Notes under the pieces: generated by a model
The model's database searches: none
What the model was told of the DNA's origin: nothing
What the model saw: only the letters and a program-made list of their open reading frames with translations
Origin: Clostridiales bacterium Firm_14
Lineage (GTDB): Bacteria > Bacillota > Clostridia > Saccharofermentanales > Saccharofermentanaceae
Reading direction: 5' to 3'
DNA: 64,000 nucleotides
Assembly (NCBI GenBank): GCA_001604135.1
Contig: LVAT01000013.1
Coordinates: 260,896 to 324,895, forward strand
Program-made: the position numbers and the translations under genes
Part shown: in pieces, positions 54,703-59,597 of the stretch
Layout of the letters: each line of letters starts with the position of its first letter
Numbering within the stretch: position 1 is the first letter of the stretch

Positions 54703-55737
54703 TCAGCCTTCCGGATCGCCTGCTGCTTCATCATAGAAGAGGTCGATCACTTTACGCTCCAAGTCATCAGCATCAACATAATATTCACGGAACATTCTGC
54801 CTTCAACAGGGTTCTCGTCTAAGGTCTCTCCAATTGTCTTGATCGTACCAAGATCCTGATATTCTTTGAGCTGATTAGCAAAATCAGATAAGGCATTAGC
54901 CGACATATCACTGGTCATGTATTCAGATAATGACAATACCAGGCTTAAAGCAAACCCGGAATCAGCTTCCATCTTGGCATTTGCCTGCTCTTTCCATGCA
55001 TTTAAGAATATCTGCTGACGTTCCATACGGAATTCATTGGTATCATTCTCCAGGCTCATACGGGATCTGACAAATAGCTCAGCCTGTTTGCCCTGAAGCT
55101 TCATTTTCGCGCCTTCCTTAAATGCCGGATCTGCAGATTCAAGTCCTGCAGGAACGGTAACTGTTACTCCGCCGACCTGTTCATTCAATATGGAAATAGA
55201 TGACATCTTCAAAGAGATATAGTGATCTACCTGCACATTGAAGAGCAAACCTGAGACGGCATCTACAGTATTAAGACATCTTCCCTGCTCAGTCTTGCCA
55301 TATGAGTGCGCAAGGCATATCTGCGCTTGAGCTATCTGATCCTTAGTGCCGTCAGCAAAATAAGTCTGAATGCCTGTCATGGTCTCACGGTTAAGTTGGA
55401 TTGCCTTATAAGTCTTGTTCTTATGGTCAACAGCGAACACATATAAAACATCCGCCTGAGAATTATTAACTGAAGATTTGGAATTTTCGAGGTCTTCACG
55501 GTCATCGATACCCATTATGAGAATGACTTCCATATTATCCTTAAGCTGATAATTCTTGCCGTCAAAATATAATGTAGAAGCTTTATTTGTATGTTTGGAA
55601 TATGTGGTGGTATCCGTCTCATTTGTCGGTTTGCTGATCATTTTAGTGACAGCAAATACCGCACCTGCGAAAGCGCAAATGGTAACAATGAGTCCGATAA
55701 CCGTAATAACTGTGTCTTTTTTGATCGTCTTAGCCAT
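54703..55737 (-). CDS. cpsA: LytR-CpsA-Psr (LCP) family glycopolymer ligase
   Basis: N-terminal TM segment (VITVIGLIVTICAFAGAVFAV), then ILIMGIDDRED...SQADVLYVFAVDHKNKTYKAIQLNRETM. The ATG at 55737 is preferred because the track's TTG start (55767) lies inside the terminator hairpin. Confidence 0.85.
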   Translation of the reverse strand: MAKTIKKDTVITVIGLIVTICAFAGAVFAVTKMISKPTNETDTTTYSKHTNKASTLYFDGKNYQLKDNMEVILIMGIDDREDLENSKSSVNNSQADVLYVFAVDHKNKTYKAIQLNRETMTGIQTYFADGTKDQIAQAQICLAHSYGKTEQGRCLNTVDAVSGLLFNVQVDHYISLKMSSISILNEQVGGVTVTVPAGLESADPAFKEGAKMKLQGKQAELFVRSRMSLENDTNEFRMERQQIFLNAWKEQANAKMEADSGFALSLVLSLSEYMTSDMSANALSDFANQLKEYQDLGTIKTIGETLDENPVEGRMFREYYVDADDLERKVIDLFYDEAAGDPEG

Positions 55738-55748
55738 ATCCGTATTAT

Positions 55749-55779
55749 ATAAAAACGGCGGCTTCAATTGAAGTCGCCG
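55749..55779 (-). terminator. Intrinsic terminator between the sortase substrate gene and the LCP gene
   Basis: Minus strand: CGGCGACUUC-AAUU-GAAGCCGCCG (9 bp plus one A/C mismatch), followed by UUUUUAU. Confidence 0.6.
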
Positions 55780-55803
55780 TTAAAATCTCAATTACTTAAC
55801 TAA

Positions 55804-56394
55804 TTACTTAGTAGCCTTCTTAGCACGTACTGCGAAGATTGCACCGCAGGAGATAAGAGCTACAGAGATCATAGCGATATATGCAGGAGCGAAATCACCT
55901 GTTTGAGGAGATGTGGACTTAGCACCAACATATACATAGAAAGGTGAGAAGTTATTGATACCGGAAATCTTAACTTCAGAGCAAGGACCGGTAACAATGT
56001 TGAACTGATATCCGCCAGCATCACGGTGAATAACGATAGCATACTCATTAGCTGCTAAAGCTACAGTAAAATATACTGTATGTGAATTATGAGTAGAAAT
56101 ATTATAAGTAGAATATGTAGCAGGATCCTGATATACCTCATATCCGACCTTAAACTTGAAATCTGAAGCCTTAAGACCCTTTGCCTCAATATCAGCTTTA
56201 AGACCAGGAATTGTAGTAAGGTCTAAACCGGGATCTGAGATCGGATCACCCTTAAAATTCAAGCTCTGATCAATATTATCTCTGTCAAAAACCTTCCAAA
56301 CACCTGTTGCCGGGCTTGCTGCCATTACAGAAATACCTAACAAAGCAACAATAACTGCTACGATAGGTAAAGCAAACAGTCTCTTCTTATTCAT
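55804..56394 (-). CDS. Small surface protein with a C-terminal SPQTG cell-wall sorting signal (predicted SrtB substrate)
   Basis: Signal peptide MNKKRLFALPIVAVIVALLGISVMAA. The C-terminus has SPQTG (55911-55897), a hydrophobic stretch FAPAYIAMISVALISCGAIFAV and a basic tail RAKKATK. Confidence 0.65.
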   Translation of the reverse strand: MNKKRLFALPIVAVIVALLGISVMAASPATGVWKVFDRDNIDQSLNFKGDPISDPGLDLTTIPGLKADIEAKGLKASDFKFKVGYEVYQDPATYSTYNISTHNSHTVYFTVALAANEYAIVIHRDAGGYQFNIVTGPCSEVKISGINNFSPFYVYVGAKSTSPQTGDFAPAYIAMISVALISCGAIFAVRAKKATK

Positions 56395-56472
56395 CGGTCA
56401 AATCCTCCTTGATTCGAACATTGTTGTACCAATATCAAACTCAATAATTATTGATAATACCATAAAGATTTT

Positions 56473-57282
56473 TTAAGTCAACTCTTTAGCTATTACCAAA
56501 AATCTTTTCGTTCGGTCTGTTCTGAGGCAAGCAGAGAGTATCAATACATTATCCCCGTACTGAGGTTTCTCTCCTTCAACAAGTTGTACGCCCTTTCCTG
56601 ATTGCTTGTACGCGTTATTGAAGAACTTATCCCAATCAGACTTTTTACTAAAGTTATTATAATGCAATATGTGCGTATTATTATGACAAATTGTTGCGAC
56701 TATATGATAAATCTTTGTCGAATTTGGCAAATAGATTACGATATACTGCGGATCAGCACTGATATCGATCTCATTGATCGTAGTCTCGAGGTTGCCGAAC
56801 ATCGCTCCGTCGCTCTGCCTGTGACCGTAGATCATGGTAACCGGATCATTAAAAGGATCCTTGTTATATGTATATTCTACGAACAGAGAACCGTTCTTCG
56901 CATACGCTCCTGTCGCATCATGTGACAGATAGAATGCGTCATTGCCCTTCTTCATCAGGATCGGCTGGCTTACATAAGGTGAAGTCATATAGAACCATCC
57001 GATGATGTCGGAATTCGTCTTCTTCAATTCATCGAAATTGACAGGATTCTTTATCTGGCCTTCCTTGTTCTCCATGTTGGGATCGATCGTTTCCGTAACT
57101 ATCACGGACGGTTCGATCTCGGAAGGCAGCGACGGATATGTGAACTGCTCGTAGGTCTGTACCGGAACTTCCTTCGGCGGAGCAAAATATCCGTTTGCCC
57201 AGAAGAAATAGAGCAGAAGTATTCCTCCTGATATGAACATAACAGCGCTCATTAACGTGTAAATGAGTCTTTTCTTGTTCAT
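56473..57282 (-). CDS. srtB: Class B sortase
   Basis: N-terminal TM anchor, then SDIIGWFYMTSPYVSQPILMKKGNDAFYLSHD, MIYGHRQSDGAMFGNL (His) and LILSACLRTDRTKRFLVIA (Cys, Arg). Confidence 0.85.
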   Translation of the reverse strand: MNKKRLIYTLMSAVMFISGGILLLYFFWANGYFAPPKEVPVQTYEQFTYPSLPSEIEPSVIVTETIDPNMENKEGQIKNPVNFDELKKTNSDIIGWFYMTSPYVSQPILMKKGNDAFYLSHDATGAYAKNGSLFVEYTYNKDPFNDPVTMIYGHRQSDGAMFGNLETTINEIDISADPQYIVIYLPNSTKIYHIVATICHNNTHILHYNNFSKKSDWDKFFNNAYKQSGKGVQLVEGEKPQYGDNVLILSACLRTDRTKRFLVIAKELT

Positions 57283-57301: not shown

Positions 57302-58000
57302 TCAAGTTGCAGCTGCGAAGATCTGTCGGCTTACCCGATATATATGATCCAGAGCTCCCTTTTTATCTTTCTTCTGCATTATCTGGACGGCATCTGCCAG
57401 ATTAGGTCTTCTGTGTTCCAAATTATGACTGTCTGACCCCAGGAGGTCGATTCTGCCTGTCTTCATCAGGTTCAACGCAGGTTTTGTTCTCTCTATGAAG
57501 AATTCCGCATTGCACTGGATAAGGAAATCAGGATTCTCCAGTATTCTGTTAACAAGTCTCCTGTCCTGGTCCAGATATCTCTCAATGTGAGCGATTATTA
57601 CACGAAGACCAAGAACATCAGATATCTCTTCTACTTCATCGATGAACTGTGGCTGCCAGTCACGGAAAGGCATCTCTAATAATATGTAATTACTATTACC
57701 TATACAGAGACTCTCGATCCCTTCTGCTCTGCTCATGCCTCTGAAGTAATGAACTTCAGAACCTGAGATGTACTTTGGCACCCTGGGCAGCAGGCTTAAG
57801 TTTGCTTCTAATTCCTGCAAAGCCCTTTCGCGCCTTCTAAGGAACGTCTCAGGAGAATTCATGTCGGCATAAAAATGCGGTGTGAATATTACTCCTTCAA
57901 CTCCCTGCCTGACCTCCATGTCCAGCATCTTAAGTGACATTTGGACATTCTTGCTGCCATCGTCAATGCCGGGAAGGATGTGACAGTGACAGTCAAACAT
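57302..58000 (-). CDS. cpsB: PHP-family protein-tyrosine phosphatase (CpsB/Wzh)
   Basis: MFDCHCHILPGIDDGS ... TPHFY ... AHIERY ... GSDSHN. Confidence 0.9.
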   Translation of the reverse strand: MFDCHCHILPGIDDGSKNVQMSLKMLDMEVRQGVEGVIFTPHFYADMNSPETFLRRRERALQELEANLSLLPRVPKYISGSEVHYFRGMSRAEGIESLCIGNSNYILLEMPFRDWQPQFIDEVEEISDVLGLRVIIAHIERYLDQDRRLVNRILENPDFLIQCNAEFFIERTKPALNLMKTGRIDLLGSDSHNLEHRRPNLADAVQIMQKKDKKGALDHIYRVSRQIFAAAT

Positions 58001-58761
58001 CAGGACTTGGTACTCTTCTTCTTCGGTGTTGAACCGTAGCCGTATGCATACTTGTTGCCGTAGCCGTACCTGTACTTCTTGCTCTTAGATCCGGAACCGT
58101 TATAAACGAAGCCCAAGACCTTAGCATCGACGAGTTCGCACTGTCTTAATGTATAGTCGAGTTCAGAAGCATTGGTATAGTCATTTCTTACAACGATTAC
58201 GAGACCGTCAGCACATCTGGATACAACGAGAGCATCTGATACCTTTCCGATAGGCGGAAGGTCCAAAAGGATAACATCGTAATTATCAGCCAGTGTATCG
58301 ATAAGGTTCGTAAATGCCTTGGAGCCCAAGAGCTCTGAAGGATTCGGCGGGATGTCACCTGCCTGTACAAAGTCTAATCCCTTGATCAGGACATCGCTGT
58401 GAAGTGTAGCCTTCTCGCTGTTGATGCCTGCAAGGATATTGGACAATCCCGTAGATCTGGGAAGATTGAGCTTCTTTCTCAATGTAGGAAGTCTCAAGTC
58501 GCATTCAACGAGGATAACCTTACGTCCGCTCTCCGCGATGGAGTAAGCAAGATTGATGACTGTAAGGGACTTGCCTTCGCCGTGTGTGGAACTTGTAATA
58601 CCGATAACTCTTGCATTACGGTCATTACGCTTTGTAGCGAACATCAGGTTTGTTCTTAAGAGATTATATGCCTCACGGCCTTCGAAATTCAGCCTTGAGC
58701 CGATGATGCTCATGCTGTTCTCATTACTTCTGGGTGCTGCAGCCTTTTTCTTATTAGCCAT
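58000..58761 (-). CDS. cpsD: BY-kinase cytoplasmic ATPase subunit (CpsD/Wze)
   Basis: Walker A TSSTHGEGKSLTVINLA, VLVECDLRLP and ILLDLPPIG, plus a C-terminal Tyr cluster KKYRYGYGNKYAYGYG. ATG at 58761 with GAGGTG 5 nt upstream. ATGA overlap with cpsB. Confidence 0.9.
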   Translation of the reverse strand: MANKKKAAAPRSNENSMSIIGSRLNFEGREAYNLLRTNLMFATKRNDRNARVIGITSSTHGEGKSLTVINLAYSIAESGRKVILVECDLRLPTLRKKLNLPRSTGLSNILAGINSEKATLHSDVLIKGLDFVQAGDIPPNPSELLGSKAFTNLIDTLADNYDVILLDLPPIGKVSDALVVSRCADGLVIVVRNDYTNASELDYTLRQCELVDAKVLGFVYNGSGSKSKKYRYGYGNKYAYGYGSTPKKKSTKS

Positions 58762-58763
58762 GA

Positions 58764-59597
58764 TCACACCTCACTTCCCTTGTTCTTATTAGTTGCGGCA
58801 ACGTTAGCAGCGCTTCTGGCCTTCTCGCCTGCTCTCGCATAAGAGCTGCCGTAACCGTAGTAACCGCCTGCTGAATCTTCGTTAAGATCAGGAATAGAAG
58901 CAAGAACAGGGATATCCTTGTACTTCTCGAGGAGGAAATCCTCTTCTCTGATCGTGCTGTCCATGAGTGACAACAGGATGATGACGCCGCATGCGATAAC
59001 AAAACCGATCAGCATACCGATTGCCGTATTCTTCGTATAGCTCGGTGATGATGCTGATTTAGCAACAACTGCATAGTCGATAACGCTGACTGATGAACCT
59101 TCAACGATGCCTGAGATACCGGAATTCGGATCTACCATGATCTCTACTACAGTGTTGCAGATATTAGCTGCCATCTCAGGATTAGGATCAGTAACAGTGA
59201 TCTTGAATACAGGAGTATTTCCCTCAGAGCTGCCTGACACCTTAGCCTTCAGCTGCTCATATGTGTAAGGGAGCTCACCCTCATATCTTGCCTGCTCCAA
59301 CGTGGTGCGGCTCTTCAAGATTACGCAGTATGTATCGATCAAGGAGCTCGAAGCATTGATATCACCGCTCGTGATGTTAAGCTTCGTCGATCCGATATCA
59401 AGCGAATTGTTGTTTACATACAACAGAGCCGAAGACTTGTACTGCGGAGTAATAAAGAAAAATGTGTAAAGGAAGAAAGCCACGCCGCCGACAAATGCAG
59501 CCAGAACGATCAACCAGATCTTGCTCCACAGAACCTTAAGCAGTTTAAGCAGATCGATCTCCTGCACGTCCTGCTTATTTTGCAGATTGTTAACCAT
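58764..59597 (-). CDS. cpsC: Wzz/CpsC-type chain-length / BY-kinase transmembrane modulator
   Basis: IDLLKLLKVLWSKIWLIVLAAFVGGVAFFLY (Wzz N-terminus plus TM1) and a second TM near the C-terminus (IGMLIGFVIACGVIILL). Confidence 0.85.
   Translation of the reverse strand: MVNNLQNKQDVQEIDLLKLLKVLWSKIWLIVLAAFVGGVAFFLYTFFFITPQYKSSALLYVNNNSLDIGSTKLNITSGDINASSSLIDTYCVILKSRTTLEQARYEGELPYTYEQLKAKVSGSSEGNTPVFKITVTDPNPEMAANICNTVVEIMVDPNSGISGIVEGSSVSVIDYAVVAKSASSPSYTKNTAIGMLIGFVIACGVIILLSLMDSTIREEDFLLEKYKDIPVLASIPDLNEDSAGGYYGYGSSYARAGEKARSAANVAATNKNKGSEV

Follow-up and report, generated by a model that had tools for sequence, protein, structure and literature searches.

A class-B-like sortase, its predicted substrate and an LCP transferase form a probable wall-anchoring cassette in a tyrosine-kinase capsule module of rumen and gut Clostridia

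Capsule fixation in Gram-positive bacteria is known mainly from streptococci and staphylococci, in which an LCP (LytR-CpsA-Psr) enzyme alone suffices. That a sortase can also be indispensable for a capsule was found in Mediterraneibacter gnavus ATCC 29149, in which the gene srtB4 shares a cluster (RGna_12030-12060) with genes for an LCP enzyme and a tyrosine phosphatase: deletion of srtB4 abolished capsule presentation, complementation restored the capsule and the mutant lost in competition in mice (Obana et al., Nat Commun 2026, PMC13121745). Mutants in the LCP and phosphatase genes behaved in the same way, each gene being needed for capsule presentation, and promoter activity was found upstream of RGna_12030, the first gene of the cluster and at most a candidate for the substrate gene; the authors noted candidate targets adjoining sortases and gave no mechanism, leaving open the reason for the sortase requirement (PMC13121745). 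Elsewhere, LcpA of Actinomyces oris attaches glycan to GspA, a substrate of sortase (Siegel et al., mBio 2019, PMC6381275), and SrtB of Clostridioides difficile cuts SPQTG-D peptides, which are among its best substrates, between T and G (Donahue et al. 2014, PMC4155245). Here we describe a locus in a 64,000-nucleotide stretch (the window) from Clostridiales bacterium Firm_14 (family Saccharofermentanaceae; GenBank assembly GCA_001604135.1, contig LVAT01000013.1, positions 260,896 to 324,895 of the forward strand), in which genes for a class-B-like sortase, a small secreted protein with a sorting signal and an LCP glycopolymer transferase adjoin a capsule module with a tyrosine kinase. We consider it probable (roughly 0.8) that the sortase, its single cognate substrate and the LCP enzyme form a three-part wall-anchoring cassette within this module, and just as probable that the cassette serves the anchoring or presentation of capsule.

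The original prediction for this locus, made from the sequence alone, placed srtB and the gene of a 196-amino acid secreted protein between cpsB and the LCP gene, and open reading frames (ORFs) for both do lie there (Table 1), the other features it named likewise being present at the coordinates it gave. The order Wzz-kinase-CpsB-sortase-small protein-LCP recurs in 26 of 26 related loci retrieved with tblastn, with sortase identity down to 41%, and three contexts at 42-60% identity have the same gene order as the window. Between sortase and LCP, all 20 loci from which the gene was extracted encode a protein of 190-263 amino acids with the motif S-[PA]-Q-T-G-[DE], a helix and a basic tail. Amongst 143 species genomes of the family, with sortases of the cassette type counted at E ≤ 1e-20, 48 encode such a sortase and 57 encode CpsB; both are present in 47, CpsB only in 10, and the sortase only in one, where it sits at a contig edge. 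Three of the ten genomes scored as CpsB only (G083, G063 and G116) carry a more divergent sortase on re-inspection. A cassette-type sortase is thus found beside CpsB in at least 50 of the 57 CpsB genomes and only one of the 86 genomes lacking CpsB has one, counts that are descriptive rather than a statistical test since the genomes are mutually related. In the source genome the CpsB phosphatase is present as a single copy. Named relatives are rumen metagenome-assembled genomes called Saccharofermentans sp. or Ruminococcaceae bacterium, and a sortase homologue is annotated from the isolate Ruminococcaceae bacterium YRB3002. A chance insertion unique to this strain, which the prediction had named as the outcome that would speak against it, does not agree with recurrence in every related locus and in most CpsB genomes. 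The prediction also treated sortase-substrate pairs as atypical of cps operons, which is true of the streptococcal models; in this family and in other gut Clostridia the pair is the rule.

The association extends beyond the family. In a sortase profile search of 399 sampled Clostridia genomes at a threshold of 1e-12, the 29 best sortase loci outside the source genome were inspected, and an LCP gene was found within 1.5 kb in 7 of them and a gene of the small-protein family in 10, these loci being spread over three GTDB families. A class-wide search with the sortase sequence alone gave no match outside the family at E ≤ 1e-25, and other class B sortases at a similar distance lie elsewhere. The window's own order, Wzz-kinase-CpsB-sortase-small protein-LCP, was found outside the family at 33% sortase identity and again in an abundant gut lineage; other relatives outside the family have CapD-CpsB-LCP-Wzz-kinase-sortase-small protein, CpsB-kinase-Wzz-sortase-LCP-small protein, or kinase-Wzz-sortase-LCP-small protein. 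Judged from gene content and order, the linkage of sortase, small protein, LCP and kinase module therefore survives reordering into at least four architectures in several families. That the pair is a dedicated one with a functional tie to the capsule module is supported by this synteny across four gene orders, by the co-occurrence with CpsB and by the sortase requirement in M. gnavus (PMC13121745).

In a further group of loci (L108-L117, e.g. L114, G363:C109) we observed ORFs of 458-543 amino acids in which a C-terminal sortase domain follows an N-terminal part of 200-350 amino acids. The small-protein profile did not match these N-terminal parts, and amongst these ORFs only that of L114 lies near Wzz and kinase genes.

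The class B label of the sortase stood in part. All 13 of its matches in the Protein Data Bank (PDB) are of the SrtB type (E-values 2.6e-15 to 8e-8), the catalytic triad of His154, Cys252 and Arg260 occurs in canonical order and is invariant across 18 relatives, and the His and Cys align with those in the SrtB structures of Listeria monocytogenes and Bacillus anthracis. Its scores are nonetheless under the curated cut-offs, both for TIGR03064 (cut-off 153.75 bits) and for the Pfam family Sortase (PF04203; 24.3 against 26.6), with precomputed PF04203 hits present on many of its orthologues; hence we call it class-B-like, rather than a scored equivalog. The source genome has five or six sortase-like genes, and an SPQTG-type tail occurs once in its 3.1 Mb. 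Because only one protein carries such a tail, the pair comprises one enzyme and one substrate, and the sortase is predicted to be dedicated to the product of the adjoining small gene.

Two other kinds of sorting signal were seen in the source genome. The second class B sortase (L002, G000:C20:43424-47212) scores above the TIGR03064 cut-off and adjoins a 436-amino acid protein with ISPTG, then a hydrophobic helix and a basic tail, at its C-terminus; the two form a separate sortase-substrate pair. Proteins of 544, 2052 and 553 amino acids (C23:2-8000 and C8:125990-127651) end in I/VPATGE, a helix and a basic tail; the enzymes for this third signal type are presumably the class A/C-like sortases on C16, C7 and C6.

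The small protein consists of a signal peptide (residues 1-26), a predicted beta-sandwich (about residues 30-160) and a sorting signal (residues 161-196) made up of SPQTG (nt 55897-55911), a hydrophobic membrane helix and the tail RAKKATK, and so has the tripartite layout of sortase substrates. Its predicted structure has a confidence (pLDDT) of about 89 over residues 30-160, with helices at 6-22 and 169-194. Against the LPXTG anchor model TIGR01167 it scores 13.4 bits (cut-off 15.9), a shortfall expected of a non-LPXTG motif. Across the family the motif is S-[PA]-Q-T-G-[DE], and the signal is nearly invariant among 24 relatives. An earlier assignment to the (S/P)PxTG motif thus suits the SPQTG of the window and not the family consensus S-(P/A)-Q-T-G, whose SAQTG members do not fit; the SPQTGD of the window is a peptide well cleaved by C. 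difficile SrtB (PMC4155245). Homologues form 136 clusters of about 195 amino acids, together with a wider set of distant relatives, some of which use SPQTS or SPxTG. Invariant positions in this wide family are limited to one His, the Ser-Pro of an S-P-F/V strand and the sorting motif. The mature domain of the window protein and of nine distant relatives matched no family in Pfam and NCBIfam scans, and a Foldseek search of the PDB with the model of the window protein gave no match at E ≤ 0.001; on the structure prediction, we assign the protein to an unannotated beta-sandwich family.

Two of the alternatives bear on this fold. The sortase could polymerise the small protein into a pilus-like fibre, given that some class B sortases build pili and that the pilin PitB gives a very weak structural match (Z 3.6). 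That match is far under significance, genes for a tip or base pilin are missing beside the single substrate gene, and the invariant lysines of the family are confined to the signal peptide and the basic tail, with none in the mature domain; on this last ground we rejected a pilus, which we regard as barely conceivable. A different role would be that of a holder or scaffold, the anchored beta-sandwich binding the polysaccharide non-covalently in the manner of a lectin, or organising, at the wall, the machinery of export and ligation, whilst the LCP enzyme links the polymer to peptidoglycan as usual. The fold itself speaks for this, as do its structural neighbours, which include carbohydrate-binding modules; these are weak and non-significant, and the best VIA-align match, to the C-terminal domain of a GH66 dextranase (Z 6.2), is below the level that would exceed common beta-sandwich likeness. 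No carbohydrate-binding family was matched significantly in the Pfam, NCBIfam or structure searches, and we return to this alternative below.

The displayed domain is diversifying. When the window was compared with three close loci, the sorting signal was 94-97% identical and the mature domain 47-59%, dN/dS was 0.26-0.38 for the small gene versus 0.04-0.16 for neighbouring genes, and nucleotide identity fell to 0.53-0.70 over the small gene within a 7.2-kb block otherwise at 0.8-0.9. Two loci, L034 and L010, share a small-gene allele and also the sequence after CapD (DegT in L010), and the window differs from them in both, which suggests that small-gene alleles are cassettes moved by recombination. 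The change of mature-domain allele together with sugar-specific genes would also be expected of a protein that holds the polysaccharide, a co-variation that comes from a comparison of three loci only.

An exposed antigen would show the same hypervariability and exchange of allelic cassettes, so the small protein might be a passenger, that is, an adhesin, an antigenic decoy or a surface protein related to phage, sharing the capsule's regulation while contributing nothing to its synthesis or attachment. The module also occurs naturally without the pair (G037, below), and many class B sortases adjoin a single substrate unrelated to capsule (e.g. P0296 and the second SrtB of the source genome). 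We nevertheless judge a passenger improbable: the association persists through the gene-order shuffling described above, the pair tracks the presence of CpsB almost one to one, and M. gnavus cannot present its capsule without the sortase of its cluster (PMC13121745).

Signals around the small gene point to its being expressed more strongly than its neighbours. The -35 of the promoter-like site upstream of it overlaps the final sortase codons, and this layout is also present in L034, L035, L036 and L010, which belong to the window's clade; in the distant L059 and L063, in which the small gene comes after LCP, TGnTATAAT precedes it. An intrinsic terminator had been proposed after the small gene, and a hairpin (55755-55780; 11 pairs with one mismatch, about -15 kcal/mol) followed by T's to 55751 was found, which a simple terminator scan misses because of the mismatch. 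The hairpin has a z-score of -2.5, with 4 of 200 shuffles folding equally well; it is present after the small gene in 10 loci, where 10 of the 13 predicted pairs show compensatory changes, and in the distant locus L061, whose gene order is the same, a hairpin of its own occupies the corresponding position. A transcript 3' end is therefore predicted here, and the conserved terminator and promoter-like site fit the further proposal that the small gene is more highly expressed than the LCP gene. Codon adaptation gives modest backing to high expression, the index being 0.71 for the small gene (86th percentile) versus 0.57 for both the sortase and LCP genes. Taken together, its own promoter-like site, strong ribosome binding site, own terminator and codon adaptation indicate that more of the small protein is made than of either adjoining enzyme.

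Table 1. Features of the capsule regulatory module, the sortase cassette and its signals; positions are those of the window.
Feature	Position	Strand	Basis or remark
Zinc-ribbon protein, 489 aa	59762-61231	minus	Upstream of Wzz
CpsC/Wzz-type chain-length co-polymerase, modulator of the bacterial tyrosine kinase (BY-kinase)	58764-59597	minus	PF02706 (Wzz) 1.4e-18; TIGR01006 141 bits
CpsD-type tyrosine autokinase (BY-kinase)	58000-58767	minus	TIGR01007 164.7 bits (cut-off 108)
CpsB/CapC-type phosphotyrosine phosphatase	57302-58000	minus	PF19567 132.8 bits
Class-B-like sortase, membrane-anchored, 269 aa	56473-57282	minus	TIGR03064 90.7 bits, under cut-off
Promoter-like site, TTGACT-16 nt-TATTAT, TATTAT preceded by TGg	56454-56481	minus	10/12 matches plus TG extension
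Strong Shine-Dalgarno sequence, AAGGAGGA	56403-56410	minus	8 nt before the small-gene ATG; read from sequence
Small secreted protein with sorting signal, 196 aa	55804-56394	minus	Translation
Intrinsic-terminator-like hairpin and U tract after the small gene	55751-55780	minus	Fold; covariation
TATAAT box, candidate -10 of a leaderless LCP transcript	55744-55749	minus	6 nt upstream of the LCP ATG (55737)
LCP (LytR-CpsA-Psr) glycopolymer transferase, 344 aa from ATG	54703-55737	minus	PF03816 70.7 bits

The LCP protein has an N-terminal membrane helix and clears the PF03816 cut-off of 24.6; its residues R117, R224, R226, D78 and D96 are invariant in 17 orthologues, and its relatives in the PDB are TagV, TagU, TagT and Cps2A. 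A leaderless transcript for this gene had been put forward, and the start region makes it a possibility. In favour of it, the TATAAT box stands before an ATG for which no Shine-Dalgarno sequence was found in the window, and six related loci likewise have TATAAT or TAGAAT 6-7 nt before an ATG that lacks a Shine-Dalgarno sequence. Against it, there is no -35 element for the box, at which a promoter scan makes no call, and in other lineages LCP starts with a Shine-Dalgarno sequence or at an overlapping GTG. A TTG at 55767 was considered as the LCP start and rejected, because it falls within the hairpin and the N-terminus that starts at the ATG is conserved among orthologues.

The overlapping starts define a second class of loci (L042:7567-7638; also L039, L043-L046 and L048-L050), in which the LCP gene, from its GTG start, shares 23-29 nt with the 3' end of the small gene and a perfect 12-pair hairpin with a U tract falls within the LCP codons for the membrane helix. 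In nine sequences of this hairpin no pair is broken and three pairs show compensatory changes, so that it looks like a terminator or attenuator within the coding sequence. In distant relatives with other gene orders, overlap of the sortase and LCP genes is frequent; in the gut metagenome relatives L059:4067-5867 and L063:4167-5946 the two share 11 nt, an arrangement that suggests translational coupling of the two enzymes.

Two observations concern the kinase end of the module. Among the nearest relatives the zinc-ribbon protein accompanies it (82-86% identity for L010, L034 and L035), and its gene is absent from more distant loci. The CpsC and CpsD proteins of the window (58000-59597) have sub-threshold NCBIfam matches to models of the chain-length determinant and tyrosine kinase associated with XrtA, an exosortase.

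The cassette probably works as follows: the small protein, produced in excess from its own promoter-like site and strong ribosome binding site and with its own terminator, is exported by Sec and retained in the membrane by its C-terminal helix, and the sortase cleaves SPQTG between Thr and Gly and joins the protein to peptidoglycan. As to the role of the small protein, we infer tentatively that it is a covalent, wall-anchored carrier of the polymer, a reading that is quite possible but to which we give somewhat less than even odds. The LCP enzyme would move finished polysaccharide from its lipid carrier onto the membrane-tethered protein. The sortase would then attach the protein-glycan conjugate to the wall, and the protein stalk would present the capsule, as with LcpA and GspA in A. 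oris; the variable beta-sandwich would be the exposed, type-specific part. Extended to many gut and rumen Clostridia, this would amount to a 'proteoglycan' anchor, with capsule not joined directly to peptidoglycan and instead loaded by LCP onto a dedicated small protein, of a family not described before, that is fixed to the wall by a dedicated class-B-like sortase and whose hypervariable part is exchanged with sugar type, a generalisation that we hold to be doubtful.

Several points weigh against a carrier. The proposed glycan on the small protein is argued from genetic linkage to the LCP gene, and LCP genes also occur in capsule loci without a sortase, so the linkage is not specific to a carrier. 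One such locus is found in the close relative G037 (L066, G037:C33:8000-23000), where Wzz-kinase-CpsB is followed directly by LCP, with neither sortase nor small gene; the module has 69-78% protein identity and is a natural variant without the pair. With one His and one Ser-Pro as the invariant residues of the mature domain, no acceptor site is known, and the survey counts, coming from related genomes, overstate independence. Loss of the sortase in A. oris is reportedly toxic, through accumulation of glycosylated GspA. By comparison, M. gnavus without srtB4 grows normally (PMC13121745), and the M. gnavus pair is likened to that of the window by gene content, not by sequence. When the LCP ectodomain (residues 40-344) and the mature domain of the small protein (residues 27-168) were modelled as a complex, the score was 0.00, which was counted neither way.

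A non-covalent holder or scaffold, as set out above, draws support from the synteny and the M. gnavus phenotype equal to that of the covalent carrier. Without its sortase, a scaffold would remain tethered to the membrane, and the complete loss of capsule would then be harder to explain; overall we see such a role as possible and on the unlikely side, below a covalent carrier.

A further route would dispense with LCP, the sortase itself making a protein-sugar amide in which an amino sugar of the polymer replaces the peptidoglycan cross-bridge as the nucleophile. On the minus strand the LCP gene is followed by a CapD-type dehydratase gene and then by sugar genes; CapD/PglF-type dehydratases and the DegT aminotransferases that come after LCP in many loci both make amino-deoxy sugars, and sortase A takes amino sugars as nucleophiles in vitro. 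The domain scan of the window proteins found no DegT gene adjoining CapD, however, we know of no natural sortase-made protein-sugar amide, and nothing would be left for the LCP enzyme to do; for us such an amide is very improbable.

In the window and its relatives, then, the sortase is accompanied by an LCP gene and by one small unannotated protein with a sorting signal, which is a concrete candidate for the missing link between sortase and capsule. The cassette appears widespread in rumen and gut Clostridia, and its small protein seems built for high expression and rapid diversification. In such bacteria, capsule presentation has effects on colonisation of the gut and on inflammation, and the anchor protein might therefore also serve as an antigen or a marker of strains.

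Sortase-dependent capsule presentation having already been published for M. gnavus, the window represents a further, distant member of that kind. Like the srtB4 cluster, it groups the sortase gene with genes for an LCP enzyme, a BY-kinase and a phosphatase in a conserved block that adjoins variable sugar genes, and it has internal promoters, putative ones in the window. The two differ in lineage, a Lachnospiraceae species as opposed to the rumen Saccharofermentans-like lineage of the window, and apparently in gene order; the M. gnavus paper assigns no role to the neighbouring candidate substrate and does not describe a conserved terminator or a hypervariable domain (PMC13121745). The nearest model for the mechanism that we prefer is the LcpA-GspA-SrtA system of A. 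oris, in which an LCP enzyme and a sortase likewise act on one small surface protein. There, however, SrtA is the housekeeping sortase with many substrates, whereas the sortase of the window is predicted to be dedicated, and GspA is known to be glycosylated, whereas for the window protein a glycan is a proposal. The A. oris genes, moreover, are said not to form a single cassette in a capsule locus. C. difficile SrtB, also a class B sortase of Clostridia, shares (S/P)PXTG-type substrates with the window; unlike it, the family described here also uses SAQTG, and SrtB is the sole sortase of C. difficile, has about seven diverse substrates and is encoded outside any capsule locus. The streptococcal cpsABCD (Wzg/Wzh/Wzd/Wze) genes resemble the module in having LCP, phosphatase, co-polymerase and kinase at the conserved end of a Wzy-type locus, with the differences that the LCP gene comes first and that there is no sortase or sorting-signal protein. 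Lastly, the exosortase/PEP-CTERM systems of Gram-negative bacteria combine a sorting enzyme and C-terminally tagged substrates with a tyrosine kinase and a chain-length determinant in polysaccharide loci, an analogy only, as enzyme fold, sorting signal and cell envelope are unrelated.

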